Part shown: positions 5,265 to 47,102 of the stretch, in pieces
Position numbering within the stretch: the first letter of the stretch is position 1
Layout: each line of letters starts with the position of its first letter
NCBI GenBank assembly: GCA_035573955.1
Contig: DATLZO010000019.1
Coordinates: forward strand, 161-64,160
Direction: 5' to 3'
DNA: 64,000 nt
DNA from: Minisyncoccota bacterium
Lineage (GTDB): Bacteria; Patescibacteriota; Minisyncoccia; UBA6257; GWB1-50-10
Notes under the pieces: generated by a model
What the model saw: only the letters and a program-made list of their open reading frames with translations
What the model was told of the DNA's origin: nothing
The model's database searches: none
Translations under genes and position numbers: made by a program

Positions 5265-5960
5265 GTGTCAAAAAAGGGAAAGCTTATCGTAATAGACGGC
5301 ATTGACGGATCAGGAAAGGCTACGCAGACGGCTCTTTTAGAAAAGCGATTGCGGAAAGAAGGCGTCAAAGTTAAGAAAATTGACTTTCCCAGATATTACG
5401 ATAATTTTTTTGGCAAACTCTTGGGGAAGTGTTTAGCCGGTGAATTCGGTGATTTTACAAAAGTGGATTCCCGGATTGCTTCCGTTTTATATGCCGCCGA
5501 TAGATTTGAATCAAGCGGCAGCATGCGAAAATGGCTTTCGGAGGGGTATGTAGTTTTGGCCGACAGATATGTAAGCGCGAATCAAATTCATCAGGGAGGG
5601 AAAATTCATTCTCCGGCCGAAAGGAAAAAGTTTTTAGATTGGCTTGATGTTATGGAGCATGGCGTGTTTGGAATTCCTCGCCCTGATTTAGTGATTTATT
5701 TGGATGTCCCCTATGAGGTAAGCCGGGAATGGCTCAAGAACAAAGTGGCTGGATGGAAAAGGAGGTATTTGAACGGTAGGAAGGATGTAGCAGAAGATAA
5801 CCTGGTTTACTTGCGTGATTCGCGAGCAAGCGCTTTGGATTTAGTGAAAAGGAACAAAAACTGGCATAAAATCACCTGCTGCAAAGGGATGATTTGCATG
5901 CTGCCGGAAGAGATTCACGAAAGAGTTTTCAAATTAGTGATGAGAAAATTGAAGGTTTAG
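5265..5960 (+). CDS. tmk: thymidylate kinase
   Basis: KLIVIDGIDGSGKATQTALL P-loop, DRYVSANQIH LID region. Confidence 0.88.
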   Translation: MSKKGKLIVIDGIDGSGKATQTALLEKRLRKEGVKVKKIDFPRYYDNFFGKLLGKCLAGEFGDFTKVDSRIASVLYAADRFESSGSMRKWLSEGYVVLADRYVSANQIHQGGKIHSPAERKKFLDWLDVMEHGVFGIPRPDLVIYLDVPYEVSREWLKNKVAGWKRRYLNGRKDVAEDNLVYLRDSRASALDLVKRNKNWHKITCCKGMICMLPEEIHERVFKLVMRKLKV

Positions 5961-6528
5961 ATTTTTTGAAAAACAGGACAGCATTTTGCTGTTCCGATCG
6001 ACCGGCGTCGGTTTGTTTGGTGTATCCCTTGAATATAAAGAGGCGGCGGCTTGAACCTCCGTACCTCAAATTCTCCCTTGAAGTGGAGATAAATTTGTGG
6101 AAGACCCAACCGACGGTTAGGTTAAAAATTTCAATGTCGCCGGGAATAAACACCTTGGTTCATCTTTTGTCTCGGCGAGGGTGATAGTTTTATCAATAGT
6201 TACGGCGGTGGGGCGTTCGGAAATACGGTAAAAATGATCTCCAAGAAAACACTATTGCCGTGCGTTTTTTAAACACACGGCGGCGACCGTTCCGGGAAGA
6301 TTCGCCTCCATTTTAAGTTTTGCGACCGACGATGACGACTTTATCCGGCTACGGGAATAAAGGGGGCAAGTCGATTGCCGTCTCGGGAGCACTGCTCGTT
6401 TGTCCGATGAAGCTGTTCACCGTCGCCGTCACGACTAGGGAAATATTGATCATAAATGATTCTTTGTGGAATGCCGTTTGGGTTATTATTCTTTTGGAGT
6501 AGGTATTCAAGTGTTGTAATATTAAATC

Positions 6529-7959
6529 ATGTATCTTCCGACGATAGGCTTGGAAATTCACGTAGAACTGAAGACGAAGACGAAAATGTTCTGCTCTTGT
6601 CCGAACGAACCGGATGAAAAACACCCCAACACGAATGTTTGTCCAATTTGCTTGGGACATCCTGGAACGCTCCCGGTTGCAAACAGAGAGGCGATAATTT
6701 CGGTCGTGAAATTCGGCCTCGCCGTCAATGGGCGCATTGCTGAACATTCGCATTTCGACAGAAAGAGTTATTTCTATCCGGATTTGCCGAAGGGATACCA
6801 AATATCTCAGTACGAACGGCCGCTTGTCGAAGGGGGAACACTCTGCGGCGTGCGTATCCGCCGGGTGCATCTTGAGGAGGATACCGGTCGTCTTCTCCAT
6901 TCTTCAACAGATTCAGGGCAAGCGAATTACTCACTTGTCGATTTTAACCGTGCAGGCGTCCCATTAATGGAACTTGTGACCGAGCCGGATATAAAGAACG
7001 CCGAGGAAGCAGTTGCATTTGCCCGCGAACTTCGCCTTATTCTACGTTATCTCGGTGTTTCGGACGCCGATATGGAAAAGGGGCATATGCGAATAGAGGC
7101 TAACGTGAGTTTGGGCAAGGGGGGAGAGCTCGGCACGAAGGTTGAAGTGAAGAATATTAATTCCTTCAAGGCGGTCCATGATGCTATTGCCTACGAAATA
7201 TCAAGGCAGGAAAAGGCACTGACGGATGGTAAGAAAATACGCCAGGAAACAAGGGGTTGGAACGAGACGGAAGGCGTGACTGAGAGTCAGCGAAGCAAGG
7301 AAGAAGCGCATGATTACCGCTATTTCCCCGAGCCGGATTTACCCCCCCTAGATTTGCGGGAATTTAACATCAAAGAACTGAAAGCAGAAATTCCAGAGTT
7401 GCCTGAGGCGAAACGACAGAGATTTATTGGTGAATACGGATTGAACAAAGAGCAGGTGGAAACACTTGTTGAAGACAAGCGTGCGGCTGATTTCTTTGAG
7501 GAGGCGATAAGCGAATTAAAAGCCAAATTACCAATTACTAATTACCAAACACTATTGAACTATTTCACAAGCGATCTCAAGGGTCTAATGAACGAACACG
7601 GCACGTCAATTGATGACTTACGCATCAAGCCGGAGCACTTGGCGCATTTGGTAGCAATGGTGGGGGGAGAAAAATTGTCCAGCCGTTTGGCTAAAGATTT
7701 GCTAGGGAAAATGTTTGAAACAGGTGAGGACCCGGAGAGTTTGATTGAGTCAGAGAAGATAACTTTCATTTCTGCAGAAGCTGAGCTCCGCGAGGTCGCG
7801 AAAGCGATAATAGATGAGAACCCGAGACCAGTTGAGGATTACCGAAAAGGGAAAACCGCGGCTCTCCAGGCCTTGGTCGGTAGGGCGATGGCTAAGACAA
7901 AGGGTCAGGCCGACCCGGAAGTGTTAGCTAAAGTTCTCAAAGAAATTCTGGAAAAGTAG
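6529..7959 (+). CDS. gatB: Asp-tRNA(Asn)/Glu-tRNA(Gln) amidotransferase subunit B
   Basis: YLPTIGLEIHVELKTKTKMFCSCPNE, FDRKSYFYPDLPKGYQISQ; 476 aa. Confidence 0.93.
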   Translation: MYLPTIGLEIHVELKTKTKMFCSCPNEPDEKHPNTNVCPICLGHPGTLPVANREAIISVVKFGLAVNGRIAEHSHFDRKSYFYPDLPKGYQISQYERPLVEGGTLCGVRIRRVHLEEDTGRLLHSSTDSGQANYSLVDFNRAGVPLMELVTEPDIKNAEEAVAFARELRLILRYLGVSDADMEKGHMRIEANVSLGKGGELGTKVEVKNINSFKAVHDAIAYEISRQEKALTDGKKIRQETRGWNETEGVTESQRSKEEAHDYRYFPEPDLPPLDLREFNIKELKAEIPELPEAKRQRFIGEYGLNKEQVETLVEDKRAADFFEEAISELKAKLPITNYQTLLNYFTSDLKGLMNEHGTSIDDLRIKPEHLAHLVAMVGGEKLSSRLAKDLLGKMFETGEDPESLIESEKITFISAEAELREVAKAIIDENPRPVEDYRKGKTAALQALVGRAMAKTKGQADPEVLAKVLKEILEK

Positions 7960-32089: not shown

Positions 32090-32127
32090 TGTTGTCGGCG
32101 TTAATGCTTGAGGGAAGTCGTCCCTAG

Positions 32128-32892
32128 TAAACGACAAATTGCTACTTCACGAAGTAATTCGTGATGACAAAGCGGCTAATAACGGTGGAATCTTAATATT
32201 TGATTATCACCATCGGTCTTGGTGATAATTTACTTGAGGACCAAGAGATGTTAAGATAATACCGTGGGAAGTCGGTCTAACATTCACTATGCGTACATTG
32301 CGGGTTTCCTCGATGGTGACGGAAGCCTCATGTTGCAGGTGAAGAAACGCAAAGAAGGGAAATTGAAACGGCGTTTCATGTTCACGATTTGTTTTTATTA
32401 AGACAGTCGTCATGAACGTCCGCTTTTCTGGATTCGTAGAGTGCTCGGCATTGGTTATATTTCCCGTCGGAATGACGGTATAACCGAGCTGCGCATCAAC
32501 GGTTACAAACAAGCTGCGAGAATATTAAGGGAACTACTGCCGTTTCTAAAATTCAAGAAGCGGCAGGCGGAGGCAATATACAGCGCGGCAAAGCTTTTAG
32601 CGCAAAAGGCGCGAAAAAGATTAACGCGGCAGGAATTGCAGCGGCTTGTGAACTGGATCCTTGTAGTTCAAAAAGAAAACTACGTTACCAGAAAAAAGAA
32701 AACGAAAGCTGATTTCTTGAAGATGTTAGATTTGACCCCGTAACGACTTGTTCCGGATGGCAAGTCCGGACGGAGTTGGAAAATGCGAAGCTATCATTTT
32801 TCAGCTAATACGCCGCCTCCAAGCCCCGGTTTTGAGAAAACTGGAGCTGGATGAAGATATAGTCTACGCACGTAGTGATACGTGGTTACGTG
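32128..32892 (+). mobile_element. group I intron in 23S domain VI, splitting CCUAGU^ACGAGAGGACC at the sarcin-ricin loop
   Basis: exon sequences rejoin to the conserved SRL; intron ends in G; GATATAGTC P7-like core; contains the LAGLIDADG ORF. Confidence 0.7.
32264..32743 (+). pseudogene. intron-encoded single-motif LAGLIDADG homing endonuclease (I-CreI-like) with an in-frame TAA at 32399-32401
   Basis: YIAGFLDGDGS motif; GIGYI...LPFLKFKKRQAEA aligns to I-CreI; the stop falls where I-CreI has Gln (CAA to TAA). Confidence 0.65.
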
Positions 32893-36025: not shown

Positions 36026-36517
36026 ATGTATCCTGAACAACCAAAATTTGAGCGTGAAATTACCACCGGTGAGCAACTAGAATTCATAGGGTCTGTTTTT
36101 GAAAAAGAAGCGCCAGTGTGGCTGATTGGTGGGTATGCAGAAGACGCCCTCTTATACGAGGGGGTTAGTTCAGGACATGGAGACGTGGATTTAGTGGCTC
36201 TACGGGACGATGAGAAACGACTAGAGGATTATTTTAGACAGAAAGGGTTTTCGGTTACGCCAATCGTAGAAGCTGGCTCAGAAAAGCCGCTTAAATTTTC
36301 CTTAGAGAGGGGTGGCGTGAAAGTCGATGTAGGATTTATAGATTATGATGAGACGAAAAAACAGCCATATGTAGATGTAGAAGGTCGAGAAAAAAGAAAA
36401 TTTAGAGTGTTTTTAGACAAAGACATGTTTAAGTATAATCCAACAAAGTTAGGTGACATTGAAGTAAAAACAGTTTCTCCACTTAGTATCATTCAGGTAC
36501 GAGAGGCTTTTTATTAA
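36026..36517 (+). CDS. minimal nucleotidyltransferase-fold protein (ANT(2'')/Lnu-like)
   Basis: WLIGGYAEDALL...GHGDVDLV resembles the ANT(2'') GG...D.D motif; 163 aa. Confidence 0.55.
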   Translation: MYPEQPKFEREITTGEQLEFIGSVFEKEAPVWLIGGYAEDALLYEGVSSGHGDVDLVALRDDEKRLEDYFRQKGFSVTPIVEAGSEKPLKFSLERGGVKVDVGFIDYDETKKQPYVDVEGREKRKFRVFLDKDMFKYNPTKLGDIEVKTVSPLSIIQVREAFY

Positions 36518-42545: not shown

Positions 42546-42621
42546 TCTGTTTTGTAAAGGAAATTTTTTCTGTCATTGAAAGTGCATGCCCCCGCGTGCT
42601 AAACCGGCACCGTTGTTTCCT

Positions 42622-42669: not shown

Positions 42670-42681
42670 ATGCAAATAAAT

Positions 42682-42717
42682 ATCCCAATTCATAAGCTAT
42701 AGCTTATGAATTGGGAT
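42682..42717. terminator. perfect 36-bp palindrome ATCCCAATTCATAAGCTA/TAGCTTATGAATTGGGAT between convergent genes; likely bidirectional terminator
   Basis: the sequence equals its reverse complement; flanked by A/T runs. Confidence 0.5.
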
Positions 42718-42719
42718 AA

Positions 42720-43481
42720 TTAGAGATAACCGATTTTTTTAAGCCATTCTATATTTTCCCATTCCCAAAGTTTCTTCGCGCCGAGGAATGCATCGAAGTC
42801 TTCTTGCCAGTAGGGGAATTCTTTGAGTTCTATCCTGCCCTCGAGCGGACCCCATTCGTGTTGGCAGACTTGCATGAAAGCGTTGCCCCACTGTGTTTTT
42901 ATCTTATCCCGACCGCCCTTAGAGCGGAGTATGGCGCTGCAATGGACGCAGAAACGGCTCTGGTCGATGCGCAAAATCCACCTCGTCTCCAGATTTTTCA
43001 CTTGTTCCTTCATTGCCGCGAGATAGGCCGAGGTCTGGAGATTATAGTCGCGGTAAATTTCCTGCGATGTTTTAATGTCCAAAATGCCGAGTTTGCCGTC
43101 GATGAGTGCGATTGCGTCCAATGTCCCGGCATAGCGGTGCTCGTAGTTTACGAGACGGTGCTCAACGTAGTTCGGGTCTACCTGGATGTTGCGGTCGACT
43201 AAAAATTCCAAGAATGCCTTAATAGAAGGGCGGATGCGCTCGGGTATTTCCGGTTTCTCACCAAGGAGGATTTTTTCTGCCGCTTCGTGGATCTGCGTAC
43301 CTTCGGTAGCAGAGTTCATTTTAATGCGTTCGCCGGCCGCAAAGTTTTCGACATTTGCGTAGAAGCGGTAGAGGGCCGGTTTGGACTTGATTTCCACGAT
43401 TTTCGTCACCCGCGGGTACCAAAATCCGTCTACTTCGTAGCCGCAGAGTGATTTGAAATGGTTTTCGTCGGAGTAGTACAT
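42720..43481 (-). CDS. PD-(D/E)XK nuclease, Cas4/RecB-like family (one N-terminal plus three C-terminal Cys)
   Basis: GTLDAIALIDGKLGILDIKTS (D...D.K), Cys13 plus CVHC...C arrangement typical of Cas4/AddB Fe-S nucleases; no CRISPR array in the window. Confidence 0.65.
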   Translation of the reverse strand: MYYSDENHFKSLCGYEVDGFWYPRVTKIVEIKSKPALYRFYANVENFAAGERIKMNSATEGTQIHEAAEKILLGEKPEIPERIRPSIKAFLEFLVDRNIQVDPNYVEHRLVNYEHRYAGTLDAIALIDGKLGILDIKTSQEIYRDYNLQTSAYLAAMKEQVKNLETRWILRIDQSRFCVHCSAILRSKGGRDKIKTQWGNAFMQVCQHEWGPLEGRIELKEFPYWQEDFDAFLGAKKLWEWENIEWLKKIGYL

Positions 43482-43490
43482 TACGATGGC

Positions 43491-44876
43491 TTATTTTATC
43501 AAGGAAGCCGTGTAGTTAACAATGTTTCCGGCACCCATCATTACAATAACAGGGGATAGGGTGTAGGATGTAGGATTTAGGGTTTTTTTAATAAATTTAC
43601 AAAGATTATTTGGGTTAGGTAGATAATAAATATTTTCTTTACCGCGATTCTTTATTTTTTTCGCTAAATCGGCGGAAGTATAGCCACGGTGGGTTTTGTC
43701 ACGGCCGGCGACTTGGTAAATAGGCAGCAAAATTAAATAGTCGGCTAAATCAAAAGCAGAGGTAAATTCCTTGAAAAGATTTTTCAGGCGGTGAGCTTGA
43801 TGCGGCTGGAAAACGCAAACTATATCCGACTCCGGGAATTTTTCGTGAAAGGCTTGAAGGGTCGCCTTGATCTCTGTCGGATGATGTGCATAGTCGTCAT
43901 ACACGGGGATTTTGAATTTTGAATTTTGAATTTTGAATTGCCCACGGTATTCCATCCGGCGCCAGGCGCCGCGATAGCCGCTTAATGCTTTTAATATTGT
44001 TTTTTCTTTGATACCGAGCGCGCGAGCGAGCGTATAAACAGCCAGGGCGTTCGAAACATTGTGCTGCCCCGTAATTTTTAAAACTTTTTTTATCCTCCGG
44101 AGAGGGGTGGTATATTTAAGTATGCCACCTCTATACCAAATCAGTCGGATGCTCTGTTTCTTGCAAATTTTTTGGATTCGGGATTTTAGACCAAAAAGAT
44201 TTTTATCGTCGCGGTTCGCTACTAAAATCCCGCCCGCTTTTATGTTTCCGATAAATTTCAAGAAAGATTTTTTTACATTTGCGAGATTCTTATAAACGTC
44301 CAAATGTTCCTTATCAATATTCGTGATTACAGCATAGGTGGGGGAGTAGTTATGGAAGGACATTTTAAATTCGTCAGCCTCGATTAAAAGCCAGTCACTT
44401 TTACCGTTCCGGAAGTTTGAGTCGCCGAATTCCTTGAGTAGTGTGCCGACGATGACCGTTGGGTCAAAACCGGCTCCGATCATAACAAGCGATGTGAGAG
44501 CGGTCGTGGTACTTTTGCCGTGGGCGCCAGCGATGGCGACGGTCTTGTAGTTTCGGGTGAGCGCTCCCAAAATCTGCGGATAGGTGAGTGTCGGGATGTT
44601 CCGCCGCCTTGCCTCCCTTAATTCTGGATTCGAGGCCGGAATAGCCTGGTTGTATACAACTAGAGCCGTTTTAGTCCCAATATTGGTTTTTTTGTGCCCA
44701 ATTTTGAACTTTAAGCCCTTTTTTTGCAGATTTCGTACTAAATCACTATCCTGCATATCTGACCCCGAAATAGCCCATTTTTGGGCCAAAAACCACTGTG
44801 CCAGTGCACTAATACCTATTCCACCCACTCCAATGAAGTGGACCAAGGGCTTATTTAAAGGGGAGAGGTCTTTCAT
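43491..44876 (-). CDS. murC: UDP-N-acetylmuramate--L-alanine ligase
   Basis: VHFIGVGGIGISALAQ, VAIAGAHGKSTTTAL, DDYAHHPTEI. Confidence 0.9.
   Translation of the reverse strand: MKDLSPLNKPLVHFIGVGGIGISALAQWFLAQKWAISGSDMQDSDLVRNLQKKGLKFKIGHKKTNIGTKTALVVYNQAIPASNPELREARRRNIPTLTYPQILGALTRNYKTVAIAGAHGKSTTTALTSLVMIGAGFDPTVIVGTLLKEFGDSNFRNGKSDWLLIEADEFKMSFHNYSPTYAVITNIDKEHLDVYKNLANVKKSFLKFIGNIKAGGILVANRDDKNLFGLKSRIQKICKKQSIRLIWYRGGILKYTTPLRRIKKVLKITGQHNVSNALAVYTLARALGIKEKTILKALSGYRGAWRRMEYRGQFKIQNSKFKIPVYDDYAHHPTEIKATLQAFHEKFPESDIVCVFQPHQAHRLKNLFKEFTSAFDLADYLILLPIYQVAGRDKTHRGYTSADLAKKIKNRGKENIYYLPNPNNLCKFIKKTLNPTSYTLSPVIVMMGAGNIVNYTASLIK
43909..43940. repeat. heptanucleotide tandem repeat (ATTTTGA)x4.5 inside murC
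   Basis: read directly; encodes QFKIQNSKFKI. Confidence 0.7.
44106..44129. repeat. copy of dispersed palindromic element (minus-strand GGTGGCATACTTAAATATACCACC), in-frame inside murC (GGILKYTT)
   Basis: read directly. Confidence 0.4.
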
Positions 44877-44931
44877 GGGGATTTAGCAAAATCTCTCGTG
44901 TCGTATAATATACCTTTTCTGTCATGATAAT

Positions 44932-45429
44932 TTATAAAAGCCATTTCCACGGTTTCCTCCTACTTTTATATTTTTCCATTTCCGACTTTATTTTCTGTAA
45001 TTTCTTTAAGTCAGTATCATTCCAGTTCACCTTAGAGAATTTTTTCTCTCCTGGAATTCTTGTTTGTCTGTTTCTTTGTAGGATGTTTAGAGCCTCTTTC
45101 CATAATACATAGTCGTATTTCTTTTTAGCTCTTAAAACGTGGTTATCAAAAAATGGTACTACTTTCTCTACGAGATCGTTCAAGTTATTTATCTGGAGCC
45201 TCGCTTGACCGTTTCTATTGAAAATGATGCCGCAGCTTAAGGTTTGTTTGATATTTTCTAGTATTTCTTTGTCATCATCACGCAACACTATAGCAAATCC
45301 TATTTTCCAATAAAAATAGACCGGCTTATTTTTCCTGTCGTGTCTAACATCGCGTCTGAAATTTATATAAAAACAACCCTCGCCGTCTACAAAGCCGGCA
45401 ATGTAATCACCAGGTAATTTTTCTCCCAC
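44932..45429 (-). CDS. free-standing LAGLIDADG homing endonuclease (single-motif, 165 aa)
   Basis: YIAGFVDGEGCFYI motif; strongly AT-rich compared with the flanking genes. Confidence 0.78.
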   Translation of the reverse strand: MGEKLPGDYIAGFVDGEGCFYINFRRDVRHDRKNKPVYFYWKIGFAIVLRDDDKEILENIKQTLSCGIIFNRNGQARLQINNLNDLVEKVVPFFDNHVLRAKKKYDYVLWKEALNILQRNRQTRIPGEKKFSKVNWNDTDLKKLQKIKSEMEKYKSRRKPWKWLL

Positions 45430-45484
45430 CCCTTTAATTATAATTTGTGTCGCACAATAAGAACAGCCAACTTATACACAGGGG

Positions 45485-45757
45485 CTATTTCTGCACCAAT
45501 TCTATAATCCATTTAATTATTCCGACGAAGAAATTTAGCAATGAAAGCAAGACGTTACCCAACCAGGATACAATGACCCTTAAATTCACTCCAAAGCGGT
45601 CGTAGACCCAGTTATTTATCGTATTCCAGGCTTCGCTGAAGCCGCTTAAGACGTCTTGCGGAAAGAGAAAGTTCAGGACTTTTCCAATATCAATCCCCTG
45701 TCCGTAAGCTAAAATCGGCAAGGAGAAGATTATTGAGGTTATTACTAAGATTTTCAT
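45485..45757 (-). CDS. hypothetical small secreted/membrane protein
   Basis: signal-peptide-like N-terminus MKILVITSIIFSLPILAYG; 90 aa. Confidence 0.4.
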   Translation of the reverse strand: MKILVITSIIFSLPILAYGQGIDIGKVLNFLFPQDVLSGFSEAWNTINNWVYDRFGVNLRVIVSWLGNVLLSLLNFFVGIIKWIIELVQK

Positions 45758-45770
45758 AAATAATAATTAA

Positions 45771-47102
45771 TTATCTGGCGGTTGCGCTTATAGCTCCCGG
45801 CGGGAAATTCGGCAAATAATCCCTTGGGTTAATTGTAACACCGACCGGAACAAGGCCCGCTGCCGGCGCAATGGATTTTAAGCTCACCGAAGGCGTCCAC
45901 AGAAGCGTGAGATGTAAATGAGCACCGTAAGAATAGCCGGTGTCGCCGGAGTAGCCAATAACGTCGCCTTTTGTAATCTGCTGGCCTTTTTGGACTACTT
46001 GGCGTGAGAGATGTGCGTACAAACTTGTTAAGCCGTTATCGTGCTGAATTAAGACATATTTGCCATATTGGTATTTAAACCAACGTGAAGTGCCGCGGTC
46101 GTTGTTGTCCACCGCTATGACCGTGCCGTTCTCAACCGCCATAATCGGTGTGCCGACAGGCGCCCGGAAATCAACGCCATTGTGGGTTTTGCTCCGATAA
46201 GCTCTTTCAGCGAATTTTGTCGGTCCATAATCCTGCGTCATGTGAGGGTTTTCAACCGGAAAGCCGATGACGCCAGGGCGTTTCACGGGTAATAAACTTG
46301 GGTCAAAGGACTTGCGGAGTTGATCCTCGTATTCCTCGATGATTTTGCTTATTTCCTCTTGCTTCTTATCGAGCTCGGCGAGCTGCTCCTGATACAATTT
46401 TTCCTGGTTCTTCGTTTGGGCAAGAATGGTGTTCTTAGTTGCTTTTTGTGCTTGGACGATCTGTTGACGGTTCACCAAACTTGCCTGCTCTCGTTCTTTC
46501 TGCCTTTGTTTAAGTTGTTCCTCACTCAGTTTTTCGACGAGGTCCACTTGGTACTTGCGGAGCTCCTCAGCGCTTGCAACAAGGTCGCTGTTTAAAGTAG
46601 CAATGGATTGAGCCTCGGAGACGCTTTCGGCCAAACTCTGGTTTTTCAGGAGTATCATCAGAAAGTTTTCCCGGTCTTTTTGTTGGAGTTTGACCATAAG
46701 CTTGCCGATTGTCGTCTTTTTATTATCGATGCTCTTTTCAATACTTCGGATGTTCCCGTTCAGGGATTTTATTTCCAAGTCGAGTTTTTCTAATGCTACT
46801 CTGTTCGCTTTGATGGAGAGATTCAATTGGCTGATGTTGTAGTCAATGATCTTCAGCTCTTTTTGGAGAGAACTTTTCAGAGAGCCTGTTTGCTCCAGTT
46901 GTTCCTCGATCTTGGCCCTCTCTTCCAAGAGTTGTTTGAGTTCAGCGCTTTTCGCATCTATCTGGGAACGAAGACTTTCTGCTTCCGACGCTTCGTTTGT
47001 AGCACTCCCCTCTTCTACTGTTGTCTGCGAAAGAACCGGCGCCATTGAAATAATGCCGAGGACAATAAACGTTACAAGCAATATATCGCGGAAAAACCTC
47101 AT
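45771..47102 (-). CDS. M23 family metallopeptidase with N-terminal coiled coil (EnvC/NlpD-like)
   Basis: HNGVDFRAPVGTPI, YAHLS, GDTGYSYGAHLHL zinc-site motifs. Confidence 0.85.
   Translation of the reverse strand: MRFFRDILLVTFIVLGIISMAPVLSQTTVEEGSATNEASEAESLRSQIDAKSAELKQLLEERAKIEEQLEQTGSLKSSLQKELKIIDYNISQLNLSIKANRVALEKLDLEIKSLNGNIRSIEKSIDNKKTTIGKLMVKLQQKDRENFLMILLKNQSLAESVSEAQSIATLNSDLVASAEELRKYQVDLVEKLSEEQLKQRQKEREQASLVNRQQIVQAQKATKNTILAQTKNQEKLYQEQLAELDKKQEEISKIIEEYEDQLRKSFDPSLLPVKRPGVIGFPVENPHMTQDYGPTKFAERAYRSKTHNGVDFRAPVGTPIMAVENGTVIAVDNNDRGTSRWFKYQYGKYVLIQHDNGLTSLYAHLSRQVVQKGQQITKGDVIGYSGDTGYSYGAHLHLTLLWTPSVSLKSIAPAAGLVPVGVTINPRDYLPNFPPGAISATAR

Follow-up and report, generated by a model that had tools for sequence, protein, structure and literature searches.

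The LAGLIDADG gene and its predicted product

We analyzed a stretch of 64,000 nt (the window in what follows) from a Minisyncoccota bacterium (assembly GCA_035573955.1, contig DATLZO010000019.1, positions 161 to 64,160 of the forward strand), and in particular a 165-aa open reading frame (ORF) at 44932..45429 on the minus strand, which starts with GTG and ends with a TAA stop codon at 44934-44932. In the original prediction, made from the letters alone, it was described as a free-standing LAGLIDADG homing endonuclease gene with a single motif, located between murC and the operon of an M23 peptidase. The coordinates proved exact and the family assignment held: the product begins with MGEKLPGDYIAGFVDGEGCFYINF, carries the LAGLIDADG motif YIAGFVDGEG, and matches Pfam LAGLIDADG_1 (PF00961) over residues 10-113 (E = 8.7e-21; score 75 bits, cut-off 23). 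No further domain besides this single one was found in the Pfam search.

Among PDB sequences, halves of the I-OnuI family were nearest (E = 2e-28), the single-domain enzyme I-TnaI was also matched, and I-CreI was more distant. The AlphaFold model, for which 47 family members were used (predicted local distance difference test score, pLDDT, of 89) shows the order of helices (H) and strands (E) expected of the LAGLIDADG core fold (H7-17, E18-28, E37-50, H51-64, E68-72, E75-80, H83-96). Foldseek matched this model with probability 1.0 to halves of I-OnuI and I-LtrI and to single-domain I-TnaI (PDB 5gkk). In the alignment of the 47 family sequences, the segment GFVDGEGCF (G12-F20) was unchanged in every member; Y9, R26, R32, P36, Y38, W41, K103, D106, and W163 were invariant as well, and a basic WKWL tail was also kept. 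The metal-binding residue E17 corresponds in the alignment to the catalytic Glu of I-OnuI (in GFADAEG), and K103 to its conserved Lys. The residues of the β1-β2 region that are predicted to face the DNA (R25, R26, R32, and Y38-W41) are near-invariant, in agreement with a conserved DNA target. Judged by its sequence, the ORF is an intact gene for a stand-alone LAGLIDADG endonuclease with the catalytic residues in place.

No group I or group II intron was detected around the ORF in a permissive Rfam search (E ≤ 10, positions 44000-46500), which returned only two matches at chance level, and the ORF is separate from the complete ORFs on either side (a 90-aa ORF and murC) and not nested within either. 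The gene is thus free-standing, outside any intron or intein, as had been proposed. Of the 66 ORFs in the window with 80 aa or more, it has the lowest G+C content (0.356), bearing out the claim that it is AT-rich compared with its neighbors. The G+C content at third codon positions (GC3), 0.382, is the second lowest of the 66, for which the mean is 0.544 (standard deviation 0.072); the sole ORF with a lower value (GC3 = 0.319) lies at 36026-36517 and encodes a 163-aa protein without a family assignment. For the ORF under study, no NCBIfam match was obtained, and PADLOC returned only generic "homing endonuclease" models. A role in a defense system was dropped on these grounds, the adjoining PD-(D/E)XK protein being only weakly Cas4-like.

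Conserved sites on both sides of the gene

The related sequences that we compared come from metagenome assemblies only, with one genome scanned per species and loci (designated by L numbers) spanning 4-12 kb; all statistics given here ignore shared ancestry. In the printed flanks of 26 loci, the 11-mer TTGTGCGACA was seen to flank the gene, on one side or on both. An unbiased count of 8-mers gave TGTGCGAC as the top word of the 120-bp flanks: 16 of 28 loci have it there (flanks of 6.7 kb in total), compared with two loci in the other 260 kb. This count is independent of the position weight matrix (PWM) that we also used, which was made from the very sites later scored with it and returned a density of 1.64 matches per kb close to the gene vs. 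0.041 per kb elsewhere. Near the LAGLIDADG gene of loci carrying distant homologs in 23S rRNA introns, there were no PWM matches. The only two strong matches in the 64-kb window are the two flanks of the gene: TTGTGCGACA matches exactly once in the window, 18 nt 5′ of the start codon, and a copy with two mismatches lies between the stop codon and murC. The possibility that the 11-mer is a general promoter element of this genome was rejected, since matches with at most two mismatches numbered 48 vs. 51 expected and high scores were confined to the flanks.

On the upstream side, a −10 box (TATAAT; 45437..45442, minus strand) ends 7 nt before the GTG, with no Shine-Dalgarno spacing. Hexamers resembling a −10 box, 6-7 nt before the start codon, are present in the window and in L004, L005, L007, L009, L010, L012, L016, L026, and L134. 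TATAAT is probably the promoter of a leaderless mRNA, with the transcription start placed accordingly by prediction, and the orthologs appear, from this spacing, to be translated from leaderless mRNAs as well. Immediately 5′ of the box lies the site TAAGTTGGCTG-TTCTTA-TTGTGCGACAC (45447..45474, minus strand; PWM score 19.0). Its promoter-proximal arm (45447-45457) alone fits the 11-mer, and the arms pair at only 1 of 11 positions. This arm sits within the promoter spacer, separated from the −10 box by 4 nt in the window and by 4-6 nt across loci. The same arrangement is found in L004, L005, L007-L012, L016, L019-L021, L026, L132, and L134, and the 11-mer occurs just 5′ of −10 boxes ahead of the LAGLIDADG gene, murC, and uppS. 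The upstream one-armed copy is therefore best described as a candidate operator.

A few further occurrences were noted. High-scoring copies of the 11-mer in opposite orientation lie in the 3′ part of murC in L007 (approximately at position 7760), L008 (approximately 7829), and L135 (1244 and 1320); in these three loci the murC-internal copies exceed the background density, and murC of the window has none. PWM matches in L143-L146 were set aside as coding coincidences, as by eye they correspond to Ile-Val-Arg-His in apparent aminoacyl-tRNA synthetase genes. A scan of viral contigs for the motif combined with a −10 box gave 47 loci, none with a LAGLIDADG gene, and was uninformative. Two viral contigs with 32% G+C, L119 (approximately 7509) and L126 (approximately 3537 and 8645), carry a repeated, unrelated AT-rich, promoter-like block, ATATTGTGCGACATGTGATATAAT, before repeated genes; this block happens to include the 10-mer, and the shared 12-mer may be a coincidence. 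About 10 nt 5′ of the promoter site, a word resembling a DnaA box (TGTGGATAA or TTATCCACA) is present in L005, L007, L020, L010, and L019, and its version in the window is TTATACACA (45472-45480). A replication origin at this place was rejected, as DnaA-box matches in the window (13 vs. 10 expected) were at chance level and the genes converge rather than diverge.

Likeness of the downstream palindrome to dif

The downstream site is a 28-bp sequence with two 11-bp arms and a 6-bp center, ATGACAGAAAA-GGTATA-TTATACGACAC (44898..44925, minus strand), which begins 6 nt past the stop codon and whose other end is 21 nt from the ATG of murC. Its right arm scores 15.1 with the PWM and its left arm, which is degenerate, −3.7. 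The site aligns with those of three loci that lack the LAGLIDADG gene (L157, L140, and L137), AAAAGGTATATT being invariant. The spacing of the arms was constant in all 25 well-formed sites (4 nt between 12-mers, equivalent to 11-6-11). Loci in which the next gene is convergent (L010, L012, L013, L019, L021, and L025) likewise have the palindrome after the LAGLIDADG gene.

The same 11-6-11 architecture is that of dif, the chromosomal target of Xer recombinases at which chromosome dimers are resolved (PMC5357621). Using reference dif sequences from PMC3025954, we found a mean identity to Escherichia coli dif of 15.4 of 28 positions, compared with 8.3 for shuffled sites (95th percentile 12). The site of the window is identical at 16 of 28 positions and that of L019 at 20 of 28; in the XerC arm, L019 shares 10 of the 11 bases. 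Arm complementarity of the sites ranges from 5 to 9 of 11 pairs, with 6 in E. coli dif.

The genomic setting points in the same direction. In six lineages the gene directly 5′ of the LAGLIDADG gene encodes a tyrosine recombinase, with a gap of −44 to +33 nt according to the ORF calls. The best families for these recombinases were XerC and XerD (E of about 1e-65), although scores stayed under the curated equivalog cut-offs. A xer gene is adjacent in L014, L015, L017, L018, L022, L023, and L211-L213, and does not occur in the window. The best point of gene convergence in the window is position 42546, 2.4 kb from the site, and within this 64-kb stretch the cumulative GC skew climbs to approximately 43 kb and then flattens. 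Across loci, the median gene-convergence score was 0.88 for those carrying the gene vs. 0.71 for controls, with values of at least 0.9 in 5 of 18 vs. 0 of 45.

Some observations speak against dif. The inner-palindrome rule of Kono et al., which requires more than four pairs between positions 7-12 and 17-22, holds for only 3 of 26 sites (L007, L012, and L019); the site of the window has three such pairs, and B. subtilis dif itself has four. Several loci hold more than one copy, and two copies flank the gene in the window. One-armed copies also occur inside promoters, including the uppS promoter in L017. On balance, we lean towards regarding the palindrome as dif-like, i.e. as the Xer/dif site of Paceibacteria, and it is probably the one that serves the chromosome near the replication terminus.

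A C-rich box, CTCTCCCCT (44859..44867, minus strand), lies 30 nt 3′ of the palindrome. In 18 of 25 loci, some with the gene and some lacking it, boxes of the type (C)ACTCCCCT, CTTCCCT, or ATTCCCT were recognized by eye 20-35 nt past the palindrome. The box of the window overlaps the first codons of murC as annotated, and the true start of murC may lie further downstream. RNAalifold predicted no shared RNA structure 3′ of the palindrome (0 pairs in 12 sequences). In L025, a hairpin resembling an intrinsic terminator follows the C-rich box, so that a short RNA is possible there.

Loci with and without the gene

The original prediction had suggested that the gene might mark a target site in or beside murC, and the palindrome is a candidate for such a site, because it is kept at the same place in relatives that are free of the gene. 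Among loci anchored on MurC, L132-L134 carry the gene, and L131, L136, L137, L139, L140, L154, and L157 have the M23 peptidase gene and murC without a LAGLIDADG gene between them. It is absent from L138 too, where no M23 peptidase gene was detected 5′ of murC. The palindrome is retained 60-170 nt before murC in six of these eight gene-free loci (L131, L137-L140, and L157), e.g. as the symmetric 28-mers GTGTCGCAAAAGGTATATTGTGCGACAG and CTGTCGTAAAAGGTATATTGTGCGACAG. L157 has the order M23 peptidase gene, small ORF, palindrome, murC, which is the layout of the window minus the LAGLIDADG gene and its promoter. Among loci anchored on Xer, the gene follows xer in none of five close relatives, and three of the five keep the conserved arm beside or flanking xer. 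From the MurC- and Xer-anchored counts, the occupancy of neighbor-anchored loci is 3 of 14. Alleles with and without the gene belong to different species here, not to one population.

Two loci deviate in both the protein and the site. L025 is an exception in having a symmetric site beside the gene, and its protein lacks the β1-β2 loop that contains R32. In L027, both the arms and the β-hairpin are altered. These cases of co-variation are anecdotes, too few to count.

The pair of sites around the gene raises the question of whether it entered as a passenger. In that case, the LAGLIDADG gene would be cargo of a cassette mobilized by Xer, similar to a small IMEX (a mobile element that integrates by making use of Xer) or a dif module, and its product would not be an endonuclease that reads the site; integration at dif by the host Xer proteins would leave a hybrid, dif-like site on either side. 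Direct copies of the conserved arm do bracket the gene in the clade of the window, approximately 550 bp apart, and the element has no recombinase gene of its own. The upstream left arms retain the outer CTGTCG of "empty" sites (L026, L004, and L005), and the downstream left arms deviate (TGACR), as an exchange of arms predicts. IMEXs and modules flanked by dif are moreover known (PMC5357621). In the clade with xer, however, the gene abuts or overlaps xer without an upstream site, and the upstream site of the window has only the single arm pair noted above. A constant cargo with catalytic residues kept for so long would be left unexplained. The direct repeats may also be no more than repeated promoter elements, given that a membrane-protein gene in L138 likewise lies between two copies. 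We consider this origin improbable.

Age and descent of the family

The closest homolog of the ORF product is 71% identical, and approximately 120 more clusters follow at 52-70%, all with 160-200 aa. A scan of species-level genomes returned about 28 orthologs with approximately 39-69% identity in lineages of the Paceibacteria type within the candidate phyla radiation (CPR); they include genomes labeled Liptonbacteria, Jorgensenbacteria, Giovannonibacteria, Yanofskybacteria, Tagabacteria, Staskawiczbacteria, Nealsonbacteria, Wildermuthbacteria, and Moranbacteria. Most orthologs adjoin the block murG-gltX-M23, often with murC and the PD-(D/E)XK nuclease gene after them. Homologs below 35% identity are often located within 23S rRNA genes of other phyla.

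Divergence of the family resembles that of a housekeeping gene. Mean pairwise identity was 50% for both the LAGLIDADG protein and GltX, and the two sets of values were correlated (Mantel r = 0.56, 0 of 5000 permutations). The sets of nearest neighbors by GltX match those by the LAGLIDADG protein for L015, L017, L018, and L010; L016 and L021 are mutual nearest LAGLIDADG relatives and within the top two of each other by GltX. Two lineages, L019 and L020, are incongruent with the GltX relationships. Descent thus appears to have been mostly, but not wholly, vertical. Copies were intact in 25 of 28 cases, with an apparent frameshift in the other three (L024, L033, and L039).

All 25 orthologs compared are AT-richer than their own locus, and GC3 was below that of the neighboring genes in 21 of 21 loci, including those of genomes with 55-57% G+C. 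The low G+C has thus characterized the family over the long term and is not the mark of a fresh import.

These data bear on the explanation that had been put forward initially, namely that a mobile homing endonuclease gene arrived recently at the murC flank, or that the ORF is the relic of a lost intron. The lowest G+C content in the window and a promoter-like −10 box of its own would be expected of such a gene. Yet the nearest homolog is only 71% identical, synteny extends across many lineages with housekeeping-like divergence, the low G+C is common to all orthologs, and the flanks, searched with intron covariance models as had been advised, contain no intron family. Recent mobility and the intron relic were accordingly abandoned, and we regard either as very improbable. 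According to the original prediction, a gene conserved in all relatives and with host-like composition would not be recently mobile; here, conservation extends to many relatives, though not to all, and host-like composition was encountered nowhere. On the sequence comparisons at hand, the family is old in Paceibacteria and bound to its locus, and the copy in the window is no recent arrival.

Two types of related proteins were observed in addition. L017 has two tandem LAGLIDADG paralogs (5956-7214), the second 31% identical to the query, with two copies of the motif between them. Four two-domain proteins of 340-400 aa (P0125, P0132, P0136, and P0140) match the family profile with E-values down to 1e-58 and may be fused derivatives of the single-domain family.

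Possible function at the palindrome

We favor, with a probability of roughly 0.45, the reading that the gene encodes a long-resident, self-regulating, free-standing homing endonuclease which acts as a homodimer and has the dif-like palindrome as its target. This tentative reading is preferred because the nuclease residues have been kept, the gene has a fixed address next to a conserved symmetric site, and the sites are better where the gene is absent; further reasons are the decaying copies, the persistently foreign composition, and the descent that is mostly but not wholly vertical. Two inverted arms of 11-12 bp around a short center would suit a homodimer.

The following course of events can be envisaged. 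A dimer of the protein would recognize the palindrome. On chromosomes free of the gene, the near-symmetric palindrome would be cut, and repair from a gene-carrying copy would install the gene beside the site. Where the gene is present, the site next to it has one degenerate arm, and this asymmetry would spare the host. In the clade of the window, the one-armed copy in the spacer of the leaderless promoter might be bound without being cut, so that transcription would be switched off, comparable to the case of I-TevI. The family would then be maintained by vertical descent, with occasional decay or loss and occasional re-entry.

Several points weigh against such a role. The link between protein and palindrome rests on their co-location, which is why the probability is kept at the value given. 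The 11-mer is also found where the gene is not nearby, i.e. beside xer (L211-L213), before uppS (L017), and around a 148-aa ORF (L138); a host protein such as Xer may therefore read it, and the LAGLIDADG gene may be a mere neighbor. Absence of the gene was judged locus by locus. The better sites of gene-free loci, which favor the homing reading, were seen in the median PWM score of the weaker arm (12.0 for n = 6 gene-free loci vs. 3.1 for n = 19 loci with the gene; p = 0.0045, Mann-Whitney test, one-sided), but this test is phylogenetically uncorrected, includes only loci with a strong arm, and uses a PWM derived from the same sites. Fairly good palindromes persist in the gene-carrying loci L010, L012, and L025, a state that would not be expected beside an active nuclease. 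The fraction of intact copies, 25 of 28, is high for a purely selfish gene, and a largely congruent, GltX-like divergence would fit a vertically kept host gene equally.

The last two points lead to the alternative that the host has recruited the protein as a DNA-binding factor or nuclease working at the terminus, which we consider unlikely, though not negligible. Variants include an accessory or controller of Xer/dif, an autoregulated factor of the Tus-TerB or RTP-TerI type, and a repressor of a small regulon of cell-envelope genes made up of murC, uppS, and its own gene. Both tus and rtp adjoin an autoregulatory Ter site. For the LAGLIDADG protein, identity values that equal and correlate with those of GltX, the agreement of nearest neighbors, the predominance of intact copies, and the enrichment of gene convergence at the loci would all be in line with a host function; the same applies to the position close behind XerC/D in six lineages and to the 11-mers just 5′ of the −10 boxes of the gene itself, murC, and uppS. 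WhiA provides a precedent for domestication (PMC3384342), but its catalytic residues were lost, whereas those of the present family are invariant. A host factor would also have to be reconciled with the absence of the gene from 11 of 14 neighbor-anchored related loci, a GC3 that persistently looks foreign, the existence of frameshifted copies, and gene-adjoining sites that are weaker rather than stronger. With only two strong sites in its 64 kb, the window gives no hint of a larger regulon. More specifically, a LAGLIDADG dimer that reads the dif-like palindrome along with its one-armed copies and was recruited as a part of the terminus, which gates or assists Xer, or as an autoregulated regulator of the terminus or of cell-envelope genes, encoded on its own site like tus and rtp, seems a shade more doubtful still; if true, it would be the first host role at the terminus for a nuclease-competent LAGLIDADG protein.

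Comparison with known systems

Most of what is known of LAGLIDADG endonucleases concerns introns and inteins. Single-domain enzymes of CPR bacteria have been described inside rRNA insertions, e.g. I-ShaI (PMC11270868), and tRNA introns of Patescibacteria are mostly without LAGLIDADG genes (PMC13011429). The ORF product resembles single-motif enzymes (I-CreI, I-TnaI, and I-ShaI) as well as I-OnuI and I-LtrI in the Pfam family LAGLIDADG_1 and in its predicted fold, and the single-motif enzymes in the catalytic Glu and Lys, the size of a homodimer subunit, and a pseudo-palindromic (candidate) site. Unlike I-CreI and I-ShaI, it is encoded outside any intron or rRNA insertion, alone in an intergenic spot among cell-wall genes, and the candidate site of 28 bp with its 6-bp center resembles a recombinase site and is not internal to a gene.

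For homing endonuclease genes that are free-standing, targets are said to be confined to intergenic regions (PMC13619312). Those of phage T4 are alike in being intergenic stand-alone genes with a candidate site beside the insertion point (PMC13619312). I-TevI, which represses its own gene, is comparable in that a copy of the site lies in its own promoter, suggesting self-repression here too (PMC3384342). In contrast, the T4 enzymes are of the GIY-YIG or HNH type and reside in a phage rather than a bacterial chromosome, and the residence of the present ORF appears far older and mostly vertical.

With Xer/dif systems, including XerS-difSL and XerH-difH, the locus shares a 28-bp site of the 11-6-11 type, a convergent, terminus-like setting, and, in a sister clade, a xer gene next to the motif. 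It differs in having more than one copy per locus and one-armed copies in promoters, and no dif with a LAGLIDADG partner is known. Members of the WhiA/DUF199 family have the LAGLIDADG fold, a place on bacterial chromosomes in the setting of cell-wall or division genes, and possibly autoregulation in common with the ORF. Those domesticated relatives consist of two degenerate domains with a helix-turn-helix at the C terminus and have lost the catalytic residues (PMC3384342), whereas the ORF product has one domain, no helix-turn-helix tail, and its catalytic residues. IMEXs and dif modules are similarly small, recombinase-less units bracketed by dif-like sequences at a dif-like locus (PMC5357621); here, however, the cassette comprises approximately 0.55 kb and one gene, the upstream site is barely palindromic, and in the xer clade there is none.

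In the full-text literature searched, which left most subscription journals outside its coverage, there was no report of a link between a homing endonuclease and dif, nor of dif in Patescibacteria. In the present comparison, a whole stand-alone family is linked in many lineages with a single conserved palindrome in a region that resembles a terminus. Homing to dif, if it does take place, exploits a sequence that ranks among the most conserved of the non-coding chromosome, which would explain the long stay of a selfish gene at one address; if the protein serves the host at the palindrome, this would be a new kind of domestication. In either case, the analysis yields a candidate 28-bp site, a first proposal of dif for Paceibacteria, and natural alleles with and without the gene, for organisms that are not culturable alone.

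Neighboring genes and a second LAGLIDADG ORF

The downstream neighbor is murC (43491..44876, minus strand), encoding UDP-N-acetylmuramate-L-alanine ligase (Pfam Mur_ligase, Mur_ligase_M, and Mur_ligase_C). A murC ortholog directly follows the LAGLIDADG gene in L004, L005, L007, L008, L009, L020, L132, and L134, and is found one gene further on in L006 and L039. Next to murC lies a gene for a PD-(D/E)XK (Cas4-like) nuclease (42720..43481, minus strand; Pfam PDDEXK_1, E = 6.6e-5), the last of the co-directional block. Its product is 48-81% identical to those of relatives and better conserved than MurC, and the gene is near the LAGLIDADG gene even in loci without murC (L003, L016, L019, L021, and L026); the nuclease is a possible second nuclease partner. 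According to a terminator scan, a strong terminator-like hairpin with a 17-bp stem (42681..42718, minus strand) closes the minus-strand block where the genes converge.

Upstream, a 90-aa ORF for a small membrane or secreted protein (45485..45757, minus strand) bounds, together with the palindrome, the "empty" allele. Homologous small ORFs exist in L157, which is without the LAGLIDADG gene, and in L131, with the palindrome and murC directly after. A coiled-coil M23 peptidase resembling EnvC, DipM, or ShyA is encoded further upstream (45771..47102, minus strand), as identified by Pfam (Peptidase_M23, E = 6e-28), NCBIfam, and synteny within the murG-gltX-M23 block. The space between the M23 peptidase gene or small ORF and the palindrome varies between loci. 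In L131 (349-3824) it holds FemAB-like, Mur-ligase-like, and 217-aa ORFs, the last of which takes the position of the LAGLIDADG gene, matches no Pfam family, and is without relatives in other loci; in L005 (4087-5931), a 614-aa BNR/sortilin-like protein; and in L138 (3383-3829), the 148-aa membrane ORF between two motif copies. Across the compared sequences, the region from the M23 peptidase gene to the palindrome is a variable spot. A 176-aa ORF located after xer in L213 turned out not to encode a LAGLIDADG protein.

A second LAGLIDADG copy in the window, distinct from the first, had also been reported, and it was found in the 23S rRNA gene. The first Rfam pass stopped at 32115; with permissive settings, the 23S rRNA gene runs to approximately 33375 with an insertion after about 32115. 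The ORF of this insertion encodes an I-CreI-like LAGLIDADG protein (YAYIAGFLDGDGS), is in frame from 32102, ends at 32743, and contains one in-frame stop codon; identity to the ORF under study is 28%. A group I intron match at 32705-32885 remained below the threshold (24.4 bits vs. a cut-off of 50). By its sequence features, the second ORF looks like a decaying intron endonuclease gene.

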